A model generated the notes under the pieces. The model had not been told where the DNA came from. It searched no databases and saw only the letters and a list, made by a program, of their open reading frames with translations. A program made the position numbers and the translations under genes. A stretch of DNA of 52,140 nucleotides from contig CAYIWD010000001.1 in assembly GCA_964367055.1 (NCBI GenBank), positions 1 through 52,140 on the forward strand, written 5' to 3'. This document shows, piece after piece, positions 43,421 through 48,183 of this stretch (its first letter is position 1; each line of letters begins with the position of its first letter). Source of the stretch: an uncultured Candidatus Saccharibacteria bacterium. Lineage in GTDB: Bacteria; Patescibacteriota; Minisyncoccia; UBA6257; UBA9933.

Positions 43421-44731
43421 ATGTCTATGAATGATGATTTAAAAAATAACCTGATTCAGGAATTTAAAAACAGATTTCCGTCAAAAAAATTTGTTCCTGG
43501 CGAATCTCCAATACCGGTTTCCGGTAAAGTTTTTAACGAAAAAGAAATATTAAAAATGACAGAGGCAGTTTTAGATGGTCATTGGACTGACGGCAAATAT
43601 GCCAAGGAATTTGAAGAAAAATTAGCTGAATTTTTTGGCTTAAAATTTTGTTCGCTTGTTAATTCCGGCTCTTCTGCTAATTTATTGGCTTTAACTGTCC
43701 TAACTTCTTTTAGAATTCCCGAAGAAAAACGGCTTAAAAAAGGCGACGAGGTGATAACCACAGCTGCTAGTTTTCCTACTACTATAAATCCGATTATTCA
43801 AAATGGTTTAGTACCTGTGTTTGTTAATGTTGAATTGGGGAGCTACAATGCGACACTGGAAAATGTCAAAAACGCCGTTTCAGACAAAACAAAAGCCGTT
43901 TTTATGGCTCACACTTTAGGTAATCCTTATGAGGTTGAAGAACTTAAAGAATTTTGCGAGCAAAATAATCTTTGGCTGATTGAAGATAACTCTGATAGCT
44001 TAGGTTCAAAATATAACGGAAAATTCACCGGCACCTTTGGGCATTTATCAACTTTGAGTTTTTATCCGGCGCATCATATTACAACGGGAGAAGGCGGCGC
44101 GATTTTAACGGATGATCCCTCGCTTAATAAAATTGTCCGTTCTTTGCGCGATTGGGGCCGGGACTGCTGGTGTCCGACTGGTCAAGATAATACTTGTAAA
44201 AAGAGATTTGATTGGCAATTGGGTGATTTGCCGCACGGCTATGACCACAAATATATTTACAGCGAAATCGGCTATAATTTGAAAATTACGGATATTCAAG
44301 CTGCTCTTGGCTCAGCTCAATTTGATAAATTAGCCGGATTTATTCAGAAACGGAAAGAAAATTTTAATTATTTATATACAGCATTTAAAGAATTTGAGGA
44401 TGATTTTATTTTGCCTGTTTGGGACAAAAAAGCAGACCCGAGCTGGTTTGGTTTTCTGTTAACCATTAAAAATACCGCTAAATTTAAAAGAAATGATTTA
44501 TTGAAGTTTTTAAATAACAGAAAAATCGGCACTAGATTACTTTTCGCCGGAAATATCACTCGTCAGCCATATTTTAAAAATTATAAGATAGATTATCGTA
44601 TTTCTGGAGAACTTAAAAATACAGATGAAATTATGAATAATTGTTTTTGGATTGGCGTTTACCCGGGTTTAAACAAAGAAATGCTGGATTATATAATTAA
44701 ATCTTTCAAAGAATTTTTCCCCCACTCTTAA
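43421..44731 (+). CDS. rfbH: CDP-6-deoxy-D-xylo-4-hexulose 3-dehydrase (E1, RfbH/DdhC)
   Basis: NSGSSANLLA. SFYPAHHITTGEGG, with His replacing the PLP Lys. RDWGRDCWCPTGQDNTCKKRF is the Cys-rich Fe-S segment characteristic of RfbH. Confidence 0.85.
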   Translation: MSMNDDLKNNLIQEFKNRFPSKKFVPGESPIPVSGKVFNEKEILKMTEAVLDGHWTDGKYAKEFEEKLAEFFGLKFCSLVNSGSSANLLALTVLTSFRIPEEKRLKKGDEVITTAASFPTTINPIIQNGLVPVFVNVELGSYNATLENVKNAVSDKTKAVFMAHTLGNPYEVEELKEFCEQNNLWLIEDNSDSLGSKYNGKFTGTFGHLSTLSFYPAHHITTGEGGAILTDDPSLNKIVRSLRDWGRDCWCPTGQDNTCKKRFDWQLGDLPHGYDHKYIYSEIGYNLKITDIQAALGSAQFDKLAGFIQKRKENFNYLYTAFKEFEDDFILPVWDKKADPSWFGFLLTIKNTAKFKRNDLLKFLNNRKIGTRLLFAGNITRQPYFKNYKIDYRISGELKNTDEIMNNCFWIGVYPGLNKEMLDYIIKSFKEFFPHS

Positions 44732-45011
44732 AGCATCTGATTATGTTTTTCTGTGTCTATTTGTTAAAATTAAAATTGGACGGTAGCTTTTATACCGGTT
44801 TTGCTGAGAACATCAGGGAAAGGTTGGAAAAACATAAACAGGGGCTAGTAATATCGACTAAGAATTTAAGACCTATGGAATTGGTATATTTTGAAGGATA
44901 TAAATCAAAAAGGGACGCGTTGGTAAGAGAAAAAAGACTAAAGCAGTTTAAAAAGGATATGCTTTCCTAAAGCGTAGACTTTCTGACTCTTTATTGCTTT
45001 AAGAGTGAGGG
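44719..45011. mobile_element. GIY-YIG cassette D bracketed by a 17-bp inverted repeat
   Basis: CCCCCACTCTTAAAGCA (44719-44735, includes the last codons and stop of rfbH) vs TGCTTTAAGAGTGAGGG (44995-45011, ends 1 nt before the ATG at 45012). 16/17 complementary. Confidence 0.5.
44743..44970 (+). CDS. Small GIY-YIG (URI-domain) nuclease family protein
   Basis: 75 aa. CVYLLK...GSFYTGFAENIRERLEKH...REKRLK matches the GIY / YIG / R / E pattern of COG2827-type proteins. Confidence 0.75.
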   Translation: MFFCVYLLKLKLDGSFYTGFAENIRERLEKHKQGLVISTKNLRPMELVYFEGYKSKRDALVREKRLKQFKKDMLS

Positions 45012-45959
45012 ATGAATAATAAAATTATATTATCTATTGGTGTTATTACTTATAATCAGCCCAAAGAATTAAGGCGGCTTATGCTAAGCGTTTTGCCGCA
45101 AATAGAGCCCGGAGTAGAAATTGTGATCAACGATAATAGTGATAACTTGGAAAGTGAATCAATAATTAGGAATGAATTTAATAGTCCTTATGTGCGTTAT
45201 TTTAAGAACAAAATTAATGTTGGGTCTGAAGGGAATATTCTTTTAGCAACCGAGCGATCATTGGGAAAATACGTTTGGTGGCTCGGTGATGATGAACTAA
45301 AGCCGGGCGCGATAGCTCATGTTCTATCTATTATAAAAAATAACCCTGAAATATCGCTGATTTGGATAAATTTTGAAGTTAATGGCTTATTAGCTCGGCC
45401 CTTAATTCAAGATAAATTTTTTAAAGATAGAAATCAGGTGGTTGAAGAAATTTCAAACGAGTTGGGATTTGTTTCTTCCATTATTTTTAAAAAAGAAAAG
45501 ATTATTAACATCAGTAAAGAAGACAAAGATCAATTTATCGGTTCTGATTTCATAAATCTTTATTTGGTAATGCATATTCTTAGCCAGGATGGAAAATTTT
45601 ATTATGTTGGGCATCCTTATGTTATTTGCTATCCGAGACCGGCTGAAAAGCATCCTTATGGCGGATTTGAAGTTTTCGGAATCAATTTTTATCGGATAGT
45701 TAAAAATTTTGAAGCTAAATTTGACAAAAAATCCATAAAAAAAATGCTAGCGAAGAATTTCGGTTATGTTTGGCGGGGAATTTTAGTCTGTTGGTTAAAG
45801 GGTTACGACACGCCAAAAGGCAAGTTCAAAACAATGTTTAGACTTTATTGGAATTTTCCGGAATTTTGGATAGCTGGGCCGCTTTTTTTAATGCCTAAAT
45901 TTATAACCAAATTTATTTATTTTATCTACAAAAAAGTGTTAAAACGTAAATATACATGA
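45012..45959 (+). CDS. GT2 glycosyltransferase
   Basis: LSIGVITYNQPKELRRLMLSV ... VINDNSDN ... GDDE. Confidence 0.7.
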   Translation: MNNKIILSIGVITYNQPKELRRLMLSVLPQIEPGVEIVINDNSDNLESESIIRNEFNSPYVRYFKNKINVGSEGNILLATERSLGKYVWWLGDDELKPGAIAHVLSIIKNNPEISLIWINFEVNGLLARPLIQDKFFKDRNQVVEEISNELGFVSSIIFKKEKIINISKEDKDQFIGSDFINLYLVMHILSQDGKFYYVGHPYVICYPRPAEKHPYGGFEVFGINFYRIVKNFEAKFDKKSIKKMLAKNFGYVWRGILVCWLKGYDTPKGKFKTMFRLYWNFPEFWIAGPLFLMPKFITKFIYFIYKKVLKRKYT

Positions 45960-46717
45960 CTAATGTTTTGGTAAAATTAATCGGTTATCCGGCGACGATT
46001 TTACACGGCGATGCGGCTGTTTTTGACAGATATAAATGGCTTAAAAAACATCTTAAATCTGGCCCACTGCGTACTCTTGACGCTGGCTGCGGCTCTGGCG
46101 CTTTTACGATGTATGCGGCAAAAATCGGAAATGAAGCAATAGGAATTTCTTTTGATAAGGGAAATAATGAAAAGGCGGTTAAAAGAGCAAGAATTTTAAA
46201 TATTTCCAATGTCAGTTTTATTGACGGAGATTTAAGAAAATTAGATGAAATATCCGAATCCTTGGGAAAATTTGACCAGATTATTTGTTTTGAAACAATT
46301 GAACATATTTTAGACGACAAAAAATTGATAAAAGATTTTTTTAGTTTGCTAAATCCGAGAGGAAAGCTACTTTTAACGACTCCCTATAAATTTTATAAGT
46401 CCCTTTACGGCGATGATAAAGATAAAATATCAACTTTTGAGGACGGCGGCCATGTCAGATATGGATACACGCATAAGGAAATGTCTGATTCATTGGAAAA
46501 ATCAGGTTTTGAAATTGAAGCAAAAGAATATATCACCGGCTTTTTGTCTCAGCAGCTTATTAATTTGCAAAGAATTCTCGCTGAAATAAATTCAAAACTA
46601 GCTTGGATTATTGTTTTTCCCCTAAGGATATTTCAATTTTTTGACCCGTTGATTAGCAAAATTATTAATTACCCGTATCTTTCAATTGGGGTGGTCGCGG
46701 TAAAAAAAATAGCTTAA
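45956..46717 (+). CDS. Class I SAM-dependent methyltransferase
   Basis: TLDAGCGSGAFTMYAA motif I and ICFETIEHI. No DNA-methyltransferase DPPY or PC motifs seen. Confidence 0.75.
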   Translation: MTNVLVKLIGYPATILHGDAAVFDRYKWLKKHLKSGPLRTLDAGCGSGAFTMYAAKIGNEAIGISFDKGNNEKAVKRARILNISNVSFIDGDLRKLDEISESLGKFDQIICFETIEHILDDKKLIKDFFSLLNPRGKLLLTTPYKFYKSLYGDDKDKISTFEDGGHVRYGYTHKEMSDSLEKSGFEIEAKEYITGFLSQQLINLQRILAEINSKLAWIIVFPLRIFQFFDPLISKIINYPYLSIGVVAVKKIA

Positions 46718-46727
46718 TTAAAATTAT

Positions 46728-47046
46728 TATGCCCAGTATGAGAATTTCAAAATGGCATTATGTTTATGTATTATTAAGTCAGAAGGATGATGAATTTTAT
46801 ATTGGCTATACCCAAAATCTAAGAAAAAGAATCGATGAACATAATGCCCCAAAAAATTTTTCAACTAAATCAAGAATTCCCCTGACTTTGATTTATACTG
46901 ATGCATGTCTAAATAAAGAAGATGCTCAAAGAAGAGAAAGATATCTTAAAACTACGCAAGGTCGAAGATTTCTTAAATTAAGATTGAGGAAGTTTCTACA
47001 AAATGGTAATTGAAAAATTTAATTTGAAATTCCTCTACTGGGTATG
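46728..47046. mobile_element. Family-1 start-codon insertion C carrying a GIY-YIG ORF (311 bp between TATG copies)
   Basis: TATG|CCCAGTA ... TACTGGG|TATG. Arms ATGCCCAGTAtGAG-AATTTCAAA vs the reverse complement of the right end, ATaCCCAGTA-GAGgAATTTCAAA. The left ATG is the start of the GIY-YIG ORF and the right ATG is the start of the GT4 gene. Confidence 0.6.
46729..47013 (+). CDS. Small GIY-YIG (URI-domain) nuclease family protein
   Basis: 94 aa. HYVYVLLSQKDDEFYIGYTQNLRKRIDEHN ... RRERYLK. Confidence 0.8.
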   Translation: MPSMRISKWHYVYVLLSQKDDEFYIGYTQNLRKRIDEHNAPKNFSTKSRIPLTLIYTDACLNKEDAQRRERYLKTTQGRRFLKLRLRKFLQNGN

Positions 47047-48183
47047 GATATTATTATTTCTGTTGGCGCAAAATTTCACGCTTTTAATCTGGCTCAACAA
47101 CTTTTAAAGAGAGGATATTTAAAGCGTTTAATTACTTCTTATCCCAAATTTGAGACGGCTAAATACGGCATACCCAAAAGTAAGGTGCGGTCTATAATTA
47201 TTAAAGAAATTTTATTCAGGGGATGGAATAAACTGCCGGGATTTTTAAAAAGAATTTTTGATTTGCAGTTTTTTATTTTTGAATTATTTGATAAATTGGC
47301 TTCTCGAAAAATCTTGAAATCGGATATTTTTGTCGGCTGGTCCTGTTTTTCACTTCGCTCCTTAAGAAAAGCCCAAAAAATGGGTGCGATAACCATTATT
47401 GAAAGGGGCAGTTCGCACATTGTTTATCAAGATGAAATTTTAAGAGAAGAATACGGCCGGTTTGGCGCTAAAATTGCGCCGACGCCAAAAAAAATAATTG
47501 CCAAAGAATTAAAAGAATATGCCGAAGCTGATTACATTTCCATTCCTTCTTCTTTTGTTAAAAGAAGTTTTTTAGAGTATGGCGTAGATGAAAAAAAACT
47601 TATTCAAGTTCCTTACGGAGTGGACTTATCTAATTTTCGACAGATTCCCAAAACTGATAATGTTTTTCGCGTAATTTTTGCAGGCGGGATGAGCTTGAGA
47701 AAGGGGGTTCATTATTTGCTTCAAGCGTTTTCAGAATTAAAATTGCCGAATTCAGAATTGATGCTTATTGGCGGTATGAATGATGAGATTATGCCATTTT
47801 TTAAAAAATACGAAGGCAGTTATAAATATGTCGGGCACGTTGACCAAAAAGAATTATACAAATATTATTCTCAAGGGTCGGTTTTTGCGATAATGTCTAT
47901 TGAAGAGGGATTGGCCTTGGTTCAACCCCAGGCAATGGCTTGCGGTTTGCCTATTATCTGTACGACTAATACCGGCGGAGAAGATATAGTCAGAAATAAT
48001 ATTGATGGTTTTGTTATTCCTATTAGAGACATTGAAGCGCTAAAAGAAAAATTAATTTATCTTTACAAAAATCCGGAAATTCTTAAAACTATGAGTCAAT
48101 CTGCCAAAGAGCGCGTAAAAAATGATTTTACTTGGGATAAATATGGAGAAAAAATTATTGAAGCGTATAAACGATTATTATGA
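47044..48183 (+). CDS. GT4-family (GT-B) glycosyltransferase
   Basis: C-terminal EEGLALVQPQAMACGLPIICTTNTGGEDIV is the E-x7-E type GT4 signature region. Confidence 0.8.
   Translation: MDIIISVGAKFHAFNLAQQLLKRGYLKRLITSYPKFETAKYGIPKSKVRSIIIKEILFRGWNKLPGFLKRIFDLQFFIFELFDKLASRKILKSDIFVGWSCFSLRSLRKAQKMGAITIIERGSSHIVYQDEILREEYGRFGAKIAPTPKKIIAKELKEYAEADYISIPSSFVKRSFLEYGVDEKKLIQVPYGVDLSNFRQIPKTDNVFRVIFAGGMSLRKGVHYLLQAFSELKLPNSELMLIGGMNDEIMPFFKKYEGSYKYVGHVDQKELYKYYSQGSVFAIMSIEEGLALVQPQAMACGLPIICTTNTGGEDIVRNNIDGFVIPIRDIEALKEKLIYLYKNPEILKTMSQSAKERVKNDFTWDKYGEKIIEAYKRLL

Follow-up and report, generated by a model that had tools for sequence, protein, structure and literature searches.

A Probable Miniature Mobile Element of Patescibacteria Built from Two 18-bp Terminal Inverted Repeats and a Small GIY-YIG Nuclease Gene

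Introduction

The Ssn proteins (cd10448), single-domain GIY-YIG nucleases of about 94 aa characterized by Chenal et al. (Nat Commun 2025, PMC11893778), are the closest published system to the locus described here. These nucleases bind their NTS/SRM hairpin repeat only as single-stranded DNA (ssDNA), with cleavage a few nucleotides to its 5′ side; the stem is read partly by sequence and partly by structure, and any loop, even a split stem, is tolerated. SRMs stand on both sides of 42% of Ssn genes, an arrangement whose insertion-sequence look the authors remark on. The same authors report that SsnA does not bind RNA, discuss domestication for ssnA of Neisseria, and propose the stem-dependent ssDNA nuclease as a tool; start codons, operons, miniature copies, excision, and Patescibacteria do not come up in the paper (PMC11893778). 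We have analyzed a 52,140-nt stretch of DNA, hereafter the window, from an uncultured Candidatus Saccharibacteria bacterium (contig CAYIWD010000001.1 of assembly GCA_964367055.1; 35.7% G+C), in which a small GIY-YIG gene lies between an rfbH-like gene and a gene for a family-2 glycosyltransferase (GT2). Positions 44719-45011 are very probably a decaying copy, 293 bp long, of a mobile element from Patescibacteria, the candidate phyla radiation (CPR); this miniature element is made up of a pair of 18-bp terminal inverted repeats and a single gene, for a GIY-YIG nuclease of about 85 aa. Elements with these ends, here called class A, form a large CPR family that is barely described.

The class A nuclease resembles the Ssn proteins in being a single GIY-YIG domain of about 90 aa with equivalent predicted catalytic residues (Tyr6, Tyr17, and Glu63 here; Y6, Y17, and E64 in SsnA), in having its gene bracketed by cognate inverted repeats, and in the many gene-less copies of the repeat per genome. 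By analogy, the Ssn way of reading a stem by sequence and structure with any loop, followed by a 5′ cut, would fit the anatomy of class A as well. The two systems differ in that an Ssn gene has a hairpin of about 28 nt, complete in itself, on either side, whereas class A has one stem split around the gene. Class A is moreover hosted by Patescibacteria and comes as discrete units with exact ends, inserted at start codons and stop/start junctions, for which natural empty sites exist; the Ssn paper describes no such units. An earlier note on this DNA, made from the letters alone, had pointed to the seg genes of phage T4 as a precedent for intergenic GIY-YIG mobility. That precedent holds only loosely: the seg enzymes are site-specific homing endonucleases of about 200 aa with two domains and without terminal repeats, while the class A nuclease is a single domain of 85 aa, and the Ssn nucleases are the nearer precedent.

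Other known systems share single traits with class A. By sequence, the nearest proteins of solved structure are UPF0213 protein BH0048 (1ZG2, E = 2.8e-4) and EF2693 (1YWL, E = 0.02), both of them distant, followed by SLX1 and UvrC; the tblastn match with YazA (E = 6e-7, 41% identity) is distant too, a tblastn search of plasmids gave YazA-like matches only, and searches of NCBIfam and PHROGs returned no specific family for the nuclease. The UPF0213/Slx1-like proteins (BH0048, EF2693, Bacillus subtilis YazA, and Escherichia coli YhbQ) have the size and motifs of the class A nuclease. They are regarded as products of ordinary single-copy host genes of unknown function, and we know of no report of terminal repeats or start-codon insertion for them. 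Miniature inverted-repeat transposable elements and palindromic elements, such as the Correia elements of Neisseria, the Rickettsia palindromic elements, and ERIC, are likewise short, have terminal inverted repeats, are co-transcribed with host genes, occur as many gene-less copies beside a few coding "parents", and are tolerated within operons or genes. In contrast to these, the class A parent is only about 290 bp long, encodes a GIY-YIG nuclease, stands flush with an ATG, and leaves no target duplication, whereas Correia elements duplicate TA. The IS200/IS605 and REP/RAYT systems recall class A in their hairpin-dependent single-strand logic (proposed for class A below), the lack of target duplication, the short specific target, and the very small size; however, theirs is a subterminal hairpin at each end and a covalent phosphotyrosine, as opposed to a single stem drawn from both termini and a hydrolytic nuclease. 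Class A has the terminal inverted repeats, the many nonhomologous sites, and the empty sites of an insertion sequence. No recognized transposase class (DDE, HUH, serine or tyrosine recombinase) was found in the element, whose only open reading frame (ORF) is the GIY-YIG nuclease. Apart from the Ssn paper (PMC11893778), no description of such elements turned up in full-text searches of the literature.

Terminal Repeats and the Class A Family

The inverted repeat around the GIY-YIG ORF of the window is confirmed. Its 17-nt core arms, CCCCCACTCTTAAAGCA at 44719-44735 and TGCTTTAAGAGTGAGGG at 44995-45011, are complementary at 16 of 17 positions with a C-A at arm position 4 as the sole mismatch, and a T-T mismatch at position 18 (44736/44994) makes this 16 of 18 over the arm length of the family. 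The earlier note had described these 17-nt arms, had assigned the last four codons and the TAA of rfbH to the left one, and had placed the end of the right one immediately before the GT2 start. Coordinates and pairing were reproduced: the TAA of the 436-aa DegT/RfbH-like gene lies at 44729-44731, inside the left arm along with the gene's last codons (…F-P-H-S*), and 45011 adjoins the ATG at 45012. Only these two copies of the arm are present in the 52-kb window at three or fewer mismatches, a threshold at which 0.14 matches are expected by chance and at which none of 100 shuffled sequences held two or more. The inverted-repeat score of flank against flank around the cassette lay above all 200 shuffles as well, and these two controls rule out a chance repeat.

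In a survey with a single genome for each species, 80 loci were retrieved. A flank-to-flank inverted repeat at p ≤ 0.03 relative to shuffles surrounds about 60 of 88 small GIY-YIG genes, and the repeats fall into two classes that track the similarity of the nuclease proteins. Class A, to which the window copy belongs, was found in Patescibacteria only; class B, with arms ACCCNGTNAAATA…, occurs in many phyla and includes a second cassette of the window. Class A comprises 16 independent full-length insertions of 281-299 bp with the form CCCYCACYCTT plus 7 nt at the left end and 7 nt plus AAGRGTGRGGG at the right end. In all 16, the right end abuts the ATG (GTG in one case) of a co-oriented ORF. 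These copies occupy at least 14 different junctions, on the operon strand, with contexts that include rfbH|GT2, rpiB|PvlArgDC, infC|rpmI-rplT, atpF|atpH, polA|histidine kinase, rnc|smc (twice), znuA|ABC ATPase, x|rplJ, x|def, and type IV secretion genes. Alignment from copy to copy gives about 82% column identity along the whole length, and the homology stops exactly at the CCC and the GGG, which in the window means that similarity to elements at other loci begins at 44719 and ends at 45011. The nuclease is the only ORF in each full-length copy; its gene fills nearly the whole interior, and its coding sequence is overlapped by the right arm. Among the roles that the earlier note had considered for the arms, it is that of element ends which draws support, from the recurrence of the same arms at the 16 insertions and in gene-less copies, together with their strong covariation (see below).

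Some class A loci are more complex. The rnc|smc junction is filled by full-length copies in two CPR lineages (L022, 1479-1764; L025, 1508-1788) whose inner arm sequences differ, the host start codon in L025 being GTG; either an old insertion has been inherited by both or the site has been used repeatedly. In L018 (1349-1770), a 126-bp gene-less copy is nested in the leader of a full-length element, before an out-of-frame ATG, which suggests that the target is recognized at the sequence level. In L021 (1493-1910), another full-length element has a truncated right arm, to which a 130-bp gene-less copy is joined.

Gene-Less Copies and Arm Covariation

A pattern that holds no flank information, CCCTCACCCTT-N{90,120}-AAGGGTGAGGG, was run on metagenome stretches and gave more than 120 matches, a lower bound. 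Gene-less copies with class A ends, hereafter minis, measure 112-142 bp, and the matches listed contain 118 distinct ones. An ATG abuts exactly one end of 67 of the 118 distinct minis listed (about 3% would be expected) and both ends of none. In 62 of these 67 oriented minis, the ATG begins an ORF of 50 aa or more (median 206 aa). At the opposite flank, 41 of the 67 have TAAT, and 46 begin one nucleotide past the stop codon of an upstream ORF, likewise of 50 aa or more. The interiors of the 67 oriented minis form 56 clusters that are unrelated to the nuclease gene, and what they have in common with full-length copies is limited to the terminal 30-48 nt; the minis were for this reason rejected as recent deletion derivatives. 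A CPR genome can hold several gene-less copies, each at a different gene start. For example, L116 has three minis in 13.7 kb, and contig Ga0076053_15 (L096, L107, L151, and L154) has at least five in 635 kb.

Of the other 51 among the 118, the majority are GC-rich hairpin repeats that belong to other organisms and have the same CCCTCACCC terminus. In L100, L102, L118, L123, L144, L158, and others, all from GC-rich organisms, long hairpin repeats carry the same CCCTCACCCTT…AAGGGTGAGGG termini, but the palindrome runs on both inward (…CCCTCTCCCC…) and outward (GGC/GCC), and no ATG adjoins it. These may be a related palindromic repeat family of other phyla.

Comparison of the 67 oriented minis with 15 full-length copies shows that the paired region is exactly 18 bp, with pairing falling to chance from position 19 inward. 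Within the arm, positions 1-11 are fixed across class A, while positions 12-18 are hypervariable (38 heptamers among the 67 minis) and yet about 93% Watson-Crick paired. The inner heptamers pair at 6.54 of 7 positions with their own partner arm and at 4.14 of 7 between different elements. The repeat is therefore conserved and covarying in homologous elements, properties whose lack the earlier note had named as grounds for giving up its proposal.

The earlier note had also suggested that the arms serve as a stem in the mRNA for translational coupling or insulation, and had listed RNA folding as a check. Folding of the window transcript places the arm stem in both the minimum-free-energy and the centroid structures (z = -3.6, with 0 of 100 shuffles as stable). 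The mRNA-specific role did not gain support from the pattern of mismatches: on the sense strand, arm mismatches comprise 14 G:U and 17 A:C, so that G:U is not in excess, and the arms are the same whatever the flanking genes. With no G:U bias there is no sign of mRNA-specific selection on the arms, though the stem would form in RNA too. These observations favor a role of arm complementarity at the DNA level, as an ssDNA stem, as a cruciform, or through homogenization of the arms during movement.

A second, local inverted repeat lies within the element, where the nuclease leader and start codon (44732-44751, CTGATTATGTTTTTC) face the codons for E-K-H-N-Q (44827-44846, GAAAAACATAA…). It is found in most class A copies with almost no covariation and with a negligible consensus fold of -0.89 kcal/mol; the pairs are near-invariant because both sides encode conserved residues.

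Insertion Sites, Empty Alleles, and Neighboring Genes

Class A elements insert without target duplication directly before a gene's ATG, in the sense direction, and typically at a stop/start junction within an operon. Removal of CCC…GGG in silico restores an ATGA stop/start overlap at the window and at L010, L015, L018, and L024, and restores TAAT|ATG at six other sites. In the window, deletion of 44719-45011 leaves …AAAGAATTTTT|ATGAAT…, with rfbH ending in …KEFL-TGA and this TGA overlapping the GT2 ATG; the predicted empty allele is thus …AAAGAATTTTT joined to ATGAATAAT…. The earlier note had read the cassette as an insertion between two operon genes and had proposed a search for rfbH-GT2 junctions that lack it. 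One was found in L214, a syntenic ortholog of the window locus (86% identity for RfbH, 65% for GT2, 77% for a methyltransferase, and 78% for a family-4 glycosyltransferase (GT4)). No GIY-YIG gene, class A ends, or class B ends were found at the L214 locus, and its junction reads …TTTTTAGGAAATTT(ATGA)ACG…, where the rfbH TGA overlaps the GT2 ATG.

A base-exact pair of filled and empty sites is provided by minis. L200 and L207 read …TAAT|element|ATGGG…, and L096 reads …TAAC|ATGGG… without a gap; at −1, the filled sites have T and the empty site has C. The lengths match exactly, and hence no target-site duplication is present in L096 versus L200/L207. Schemes in which the element duplicates a 2-nt AT or itself supplies part of the ATG or of the TAAT were rejected, since they fail at the ATGA sites, fail against L096, or fuse infC to rpmI. 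An integron cassette was rejected as well, for no self-contained site resembling attC is present and the gene lies within the repeat instead of being followed by it.

Insertion alters the end of the upstream protein at ATGA-type sites. There, the left arm provides an in-frame TAA or TGA at +10 and thereby a P-H-S* or P-H-P* tail; the stop is created by an inner arm that starts with AA or GA, as it does at five of five such sites. Element-encoded host tails of three or four residues are found in the window (FPHS, 44719-44731), in L010 (2982-2994), and in the left arms of L015, L018, and L024. In the window, the insertion split the ATGA overlap of the rfbH TGA and the GT2 ATG and gave rfbH the TAA of the left arm together with the FPHS tail, such that RfbH ends in …KEFFPHS* where the L214 ortholog ends in …KEFLGNL*. 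Across class A, the upstream stop lies 8-25 nt ahead of the nuclease ATG, which has no Shine-Dalgarno motif, and the nuclease stop lies 5-11 nt ahead of the host ATG. Judged from this spacing, ribosome coupling looks to be kept in series through the element.

Features of the Window Copy

The coordinates of the window copy and its surroundings are collected in Table 1. The predicted catalytic residues Tyr6, Tyr17, Arg, His31, and Glu63 of the window nuclease are intact and all lie upstream of a frameshift. Y6, Y17, and E63 are conserved in the alignment of homologs and match the equivalent residues of 1ZG2. Intact homologs of 85-88 aa share 64-77% identity with the window protein, end in …KKGYASLKRRLSDSLML*, and have no further domain. 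The ORF had 85 aa before the 1-nt deletion, and the sequence with the deletion is the same in four independent assemblies. The earlier note had the 75-aa ORF lying entirely in the loop, which is correct for the gene as it stands; the ORF is confined to the loop only because of the 1-nt deletion, the ancestral stop being inside the right arm. The frameshift places the present stop 41 nt ahead of the GT2 ATG. Together with the two arm mismatches, it suggests that the decaying window copy is no longer autonomous.

The window derives from a groundwater organism; contigs near-identical to it come from Hainich H43, and an exact-protein look-up of the window nuclease returned the same strain only. 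GT2 orthologs of 63-65% identity are found in Wolfebacteria-like contigs. The leader, too, can provide a stop for the upstream gene: in L005, rpiB ends at the leader-encoded TGA.

The second GIY-YIG cassette of the window belongs to class B, and the earlier note's pattern of flanking inverted repeats is present at both GIY-YIG genes. The arms of the class B cassette are …ATGCCCAGTA… / …TATGCCCAGTA… and …TACTGGGTATG, the right one terminating on the ATG (47044) of the GT4 gene that follows. The cassette is absent at the syntenic L214 locus, where residues 266-644 of a 644-aa methyltransferase-GT fusion, its C-terminal part, make up the homolog of GT4.

Table 1. Positions of the class A copy, its host genes, and the class B cassette in the window
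Feature	Position	Strand	Details
Upstream host gene, DegT/DnrJ/EryC1 (RfbH-like) pyridoxal phosphate enzyme, 436 aa	43421..44731	+	Pfam PF01041, E = 4.9e-94
Left terminal inverted repeat	44719..44736	+	18 nt, CCCCCACTCTTAAAGCAT; positions 1-11 family-conserved, positions 12-18 variable and covarying with right arm
Leader CTGATT, 6 nt, from left arm to nuclease ATG	44737..44742	+	No Shine-Dalgarno motif; TGA in second frame
GIY-YIG nuclease ORF, 75 aa as it stands	44743..44970	+	PF01541, E = 2.3e-13, residues 3-71 of 75
A-run, frameshift site	44950..44954	+	1-nt deletion relative to intact copies (nucleotide alignment column 245, six-frame reading)
Ancestral C-terminal coding segment, out of frame	44955..45002	+	Reads GYAFLKRRLSDSLLL*; original TAA 45000-45002 inside right arm
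Right terminal inverted repeat	44994..45011	+	18 nt, TTGCTTTAAGAGTGAGGG; flush against GT2 ATG (45012)
Downstream host gene, family-2 glycosyltransferase, 315 aa	45012..45959	+	PF00535; ATG is the insertion point
Second, different GIY-YIG cassette (class B)	46716..47058	+	94-aa ORF at 46729-47013, own flanking inverted repeat

Discussion

Class A is a discrete unit with exact ends, many copies, covarying arms, empty sites, and a preference for one kind of site, and how such a unit would move is the more difficult question. We propose tentatively, and with confidence that stops somewhat short of even, that the 85-aa GIY-YIG nuclease itself mobilizes a DNA transposon of about 290 bp by way of the element's own 18-bp ssDNA stem, and that the element moves without duplication to T|ATG at stop/start junctions. 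The arms would form a stem while the element is single-stranded DNA, with the outer 11 bp read by sequence and the inner 7 bp needed for pairing only. The encoded nuclease might then act on the arm stem, much as Ssn enzymes nick a few nucleotides 5′ of an ssDNA hairpin, and rejoining and integration would fall to host functions. Expression would rely on re-initiation, the nuclease being translated by ribosomes that have finished the upstream gene and the host gene by ribosomes that have finished the nuclease. In this way, the element may be nearly invisible to the expression of the operon, as it supplies the upstream stops, has its own gene read by re-initiation, and lets ribosomes pass to the ATG of the host gene.

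A number of points weigh against the reading of class A as a mobile element and of its nuclease as the enzyme that moves it. GIY-YIG enzymes are hydrolytic nucleases with, to our knowledge, no strand transfer activity, and we know of no enzyme for the integration step. The nuclease could be a passenger mobilized by another enzyme. The covariation of the arms could come from one arm being copied off the other instead of from selection for pairing. The published SRM motif, HGTCWYN(0-2)YYVSBRHN(0-5)WNVSBRGN(0-2)RNCYNB, has no match in the window or near the gene at any of the 80 loci, although the NTS consensus used as control was matched; because this motif is absent, the ssDNA-hairpin mechanism is proposed by analogy. 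The L214 junction is not base-exact but stands 9 nt off the predicted empty site, with three extra codons (GNL). Neither transposition nor polymorphism nor an excision product was observed. The Logan contigs from four source-site runs hold the filled form only, at a low depth that makes them uninformative on polymorphism.

Among the alternatives, one accepts mobility and assigns it to an HUH, IS200/IS605-type, or other transposase acting in trans, leaving the GIY-YIG gene as a passenger or as an addiction or competition module. The missing strand transfer chemistry of GIY-YIG nucleases speaks for this explanation, insertion without target duplication and with hairpin-like ends recalls IS200/IS605, and the interiors of the minis bear no relation to the nuclease gene. 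We nonetheless consider it unlikely, for the nuclease is the sole ORF in all full-length copies at 16 loci, the repeat class follows nuclease similarity across phyla, and the right arm forms part of the sequence that encodes the nuclease. Another explanation makes the arms mainly an mRNA stem that loops out the cassette and sets the rfbH stop beside the GT2 start for coupling or insulation. The folding result described above and the geometry, with a stop in the left arm and an ATG directly after the right arm, fit such a stem, as do the Watson-Crick complementarity kept by the arms and the sense orientation of all copies in operons. Yet G:U pairs are not preferred over A:C on the transcribed strand, the outer 11 bp are invariant across unrelated host genes beyond what pairing alone needs, and a ribosome terminating in the left arm would melt the stem anyway. 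Moreover, SsnA, the closest characterized enzyme, binds no RNA (PMC11893778). We regard a mainly mRNA-level function as quite improbable; an effect of the stem in the mRNA could be a side benefit alongside mobility.

Two further alternatives give the gene a different standing, and we lend very little credence to either. A domesticated host nuclease gene of the Ssn type with regulatory flanking hairpins that is not self-mobile, as proposed for ssnA of Neisseria, would explain an Ssn-like single-domain protein between complementary repeats, and domestication is discussed for that system (PMC11893778). It is difficult to reconcile with near-identical cassettes at 16 different junctions, natural empty sites (L214 and L096), the frameshift in the window copy, the absence of the SRM motif, and the nested insertions in L018 and L021. 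Equally improbable is a freestanding GIY-YIG homing endonuclease gene like T4 seg or mobE, which would cut the cassette-free allele and spread by recombinational repair. An intergenic position, GIY-YIG chemistry, and the occupancy of rnc|smc in two lineages are what such a gene might show, but the 85-aa protein has no DNA-binding domain, terminal inverted repeats are present, more than 100 gene-less copies have the same ends, and the target loci, at least 14 in number, share only about T|ATG.

Significance

If the nuclease does move the element, class A would represent a new mechanistic class of prokaryotic transposon and would reduce the minimum size of autonomous mobile DNA. It would be smaller than any autonomous mobile element that we know from cellular genomes, and it would be driven by a class of nuclease that we do not know to power bacterial transposition. 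The combination of a fixed outer 11 bp with an inner 7 bp that is free but paired suggests a programmable stem-dependent ssDNA nuclease tool. Even without nuclease-driven mobility, hundreds of "hypothetical GIY-YIG" genes and orphan CPR palindromes become one element family, and annotation artifacts such as host proteins with element-derived tails (for example, …PHS*) can be explained. For the Patescibacteria themselves, the family means that reduced genomes with tightly overlapping genes tolerate insertions in essential operons, including those for ATP synthase, infC-rpmI-rplT, and rnc-smc.

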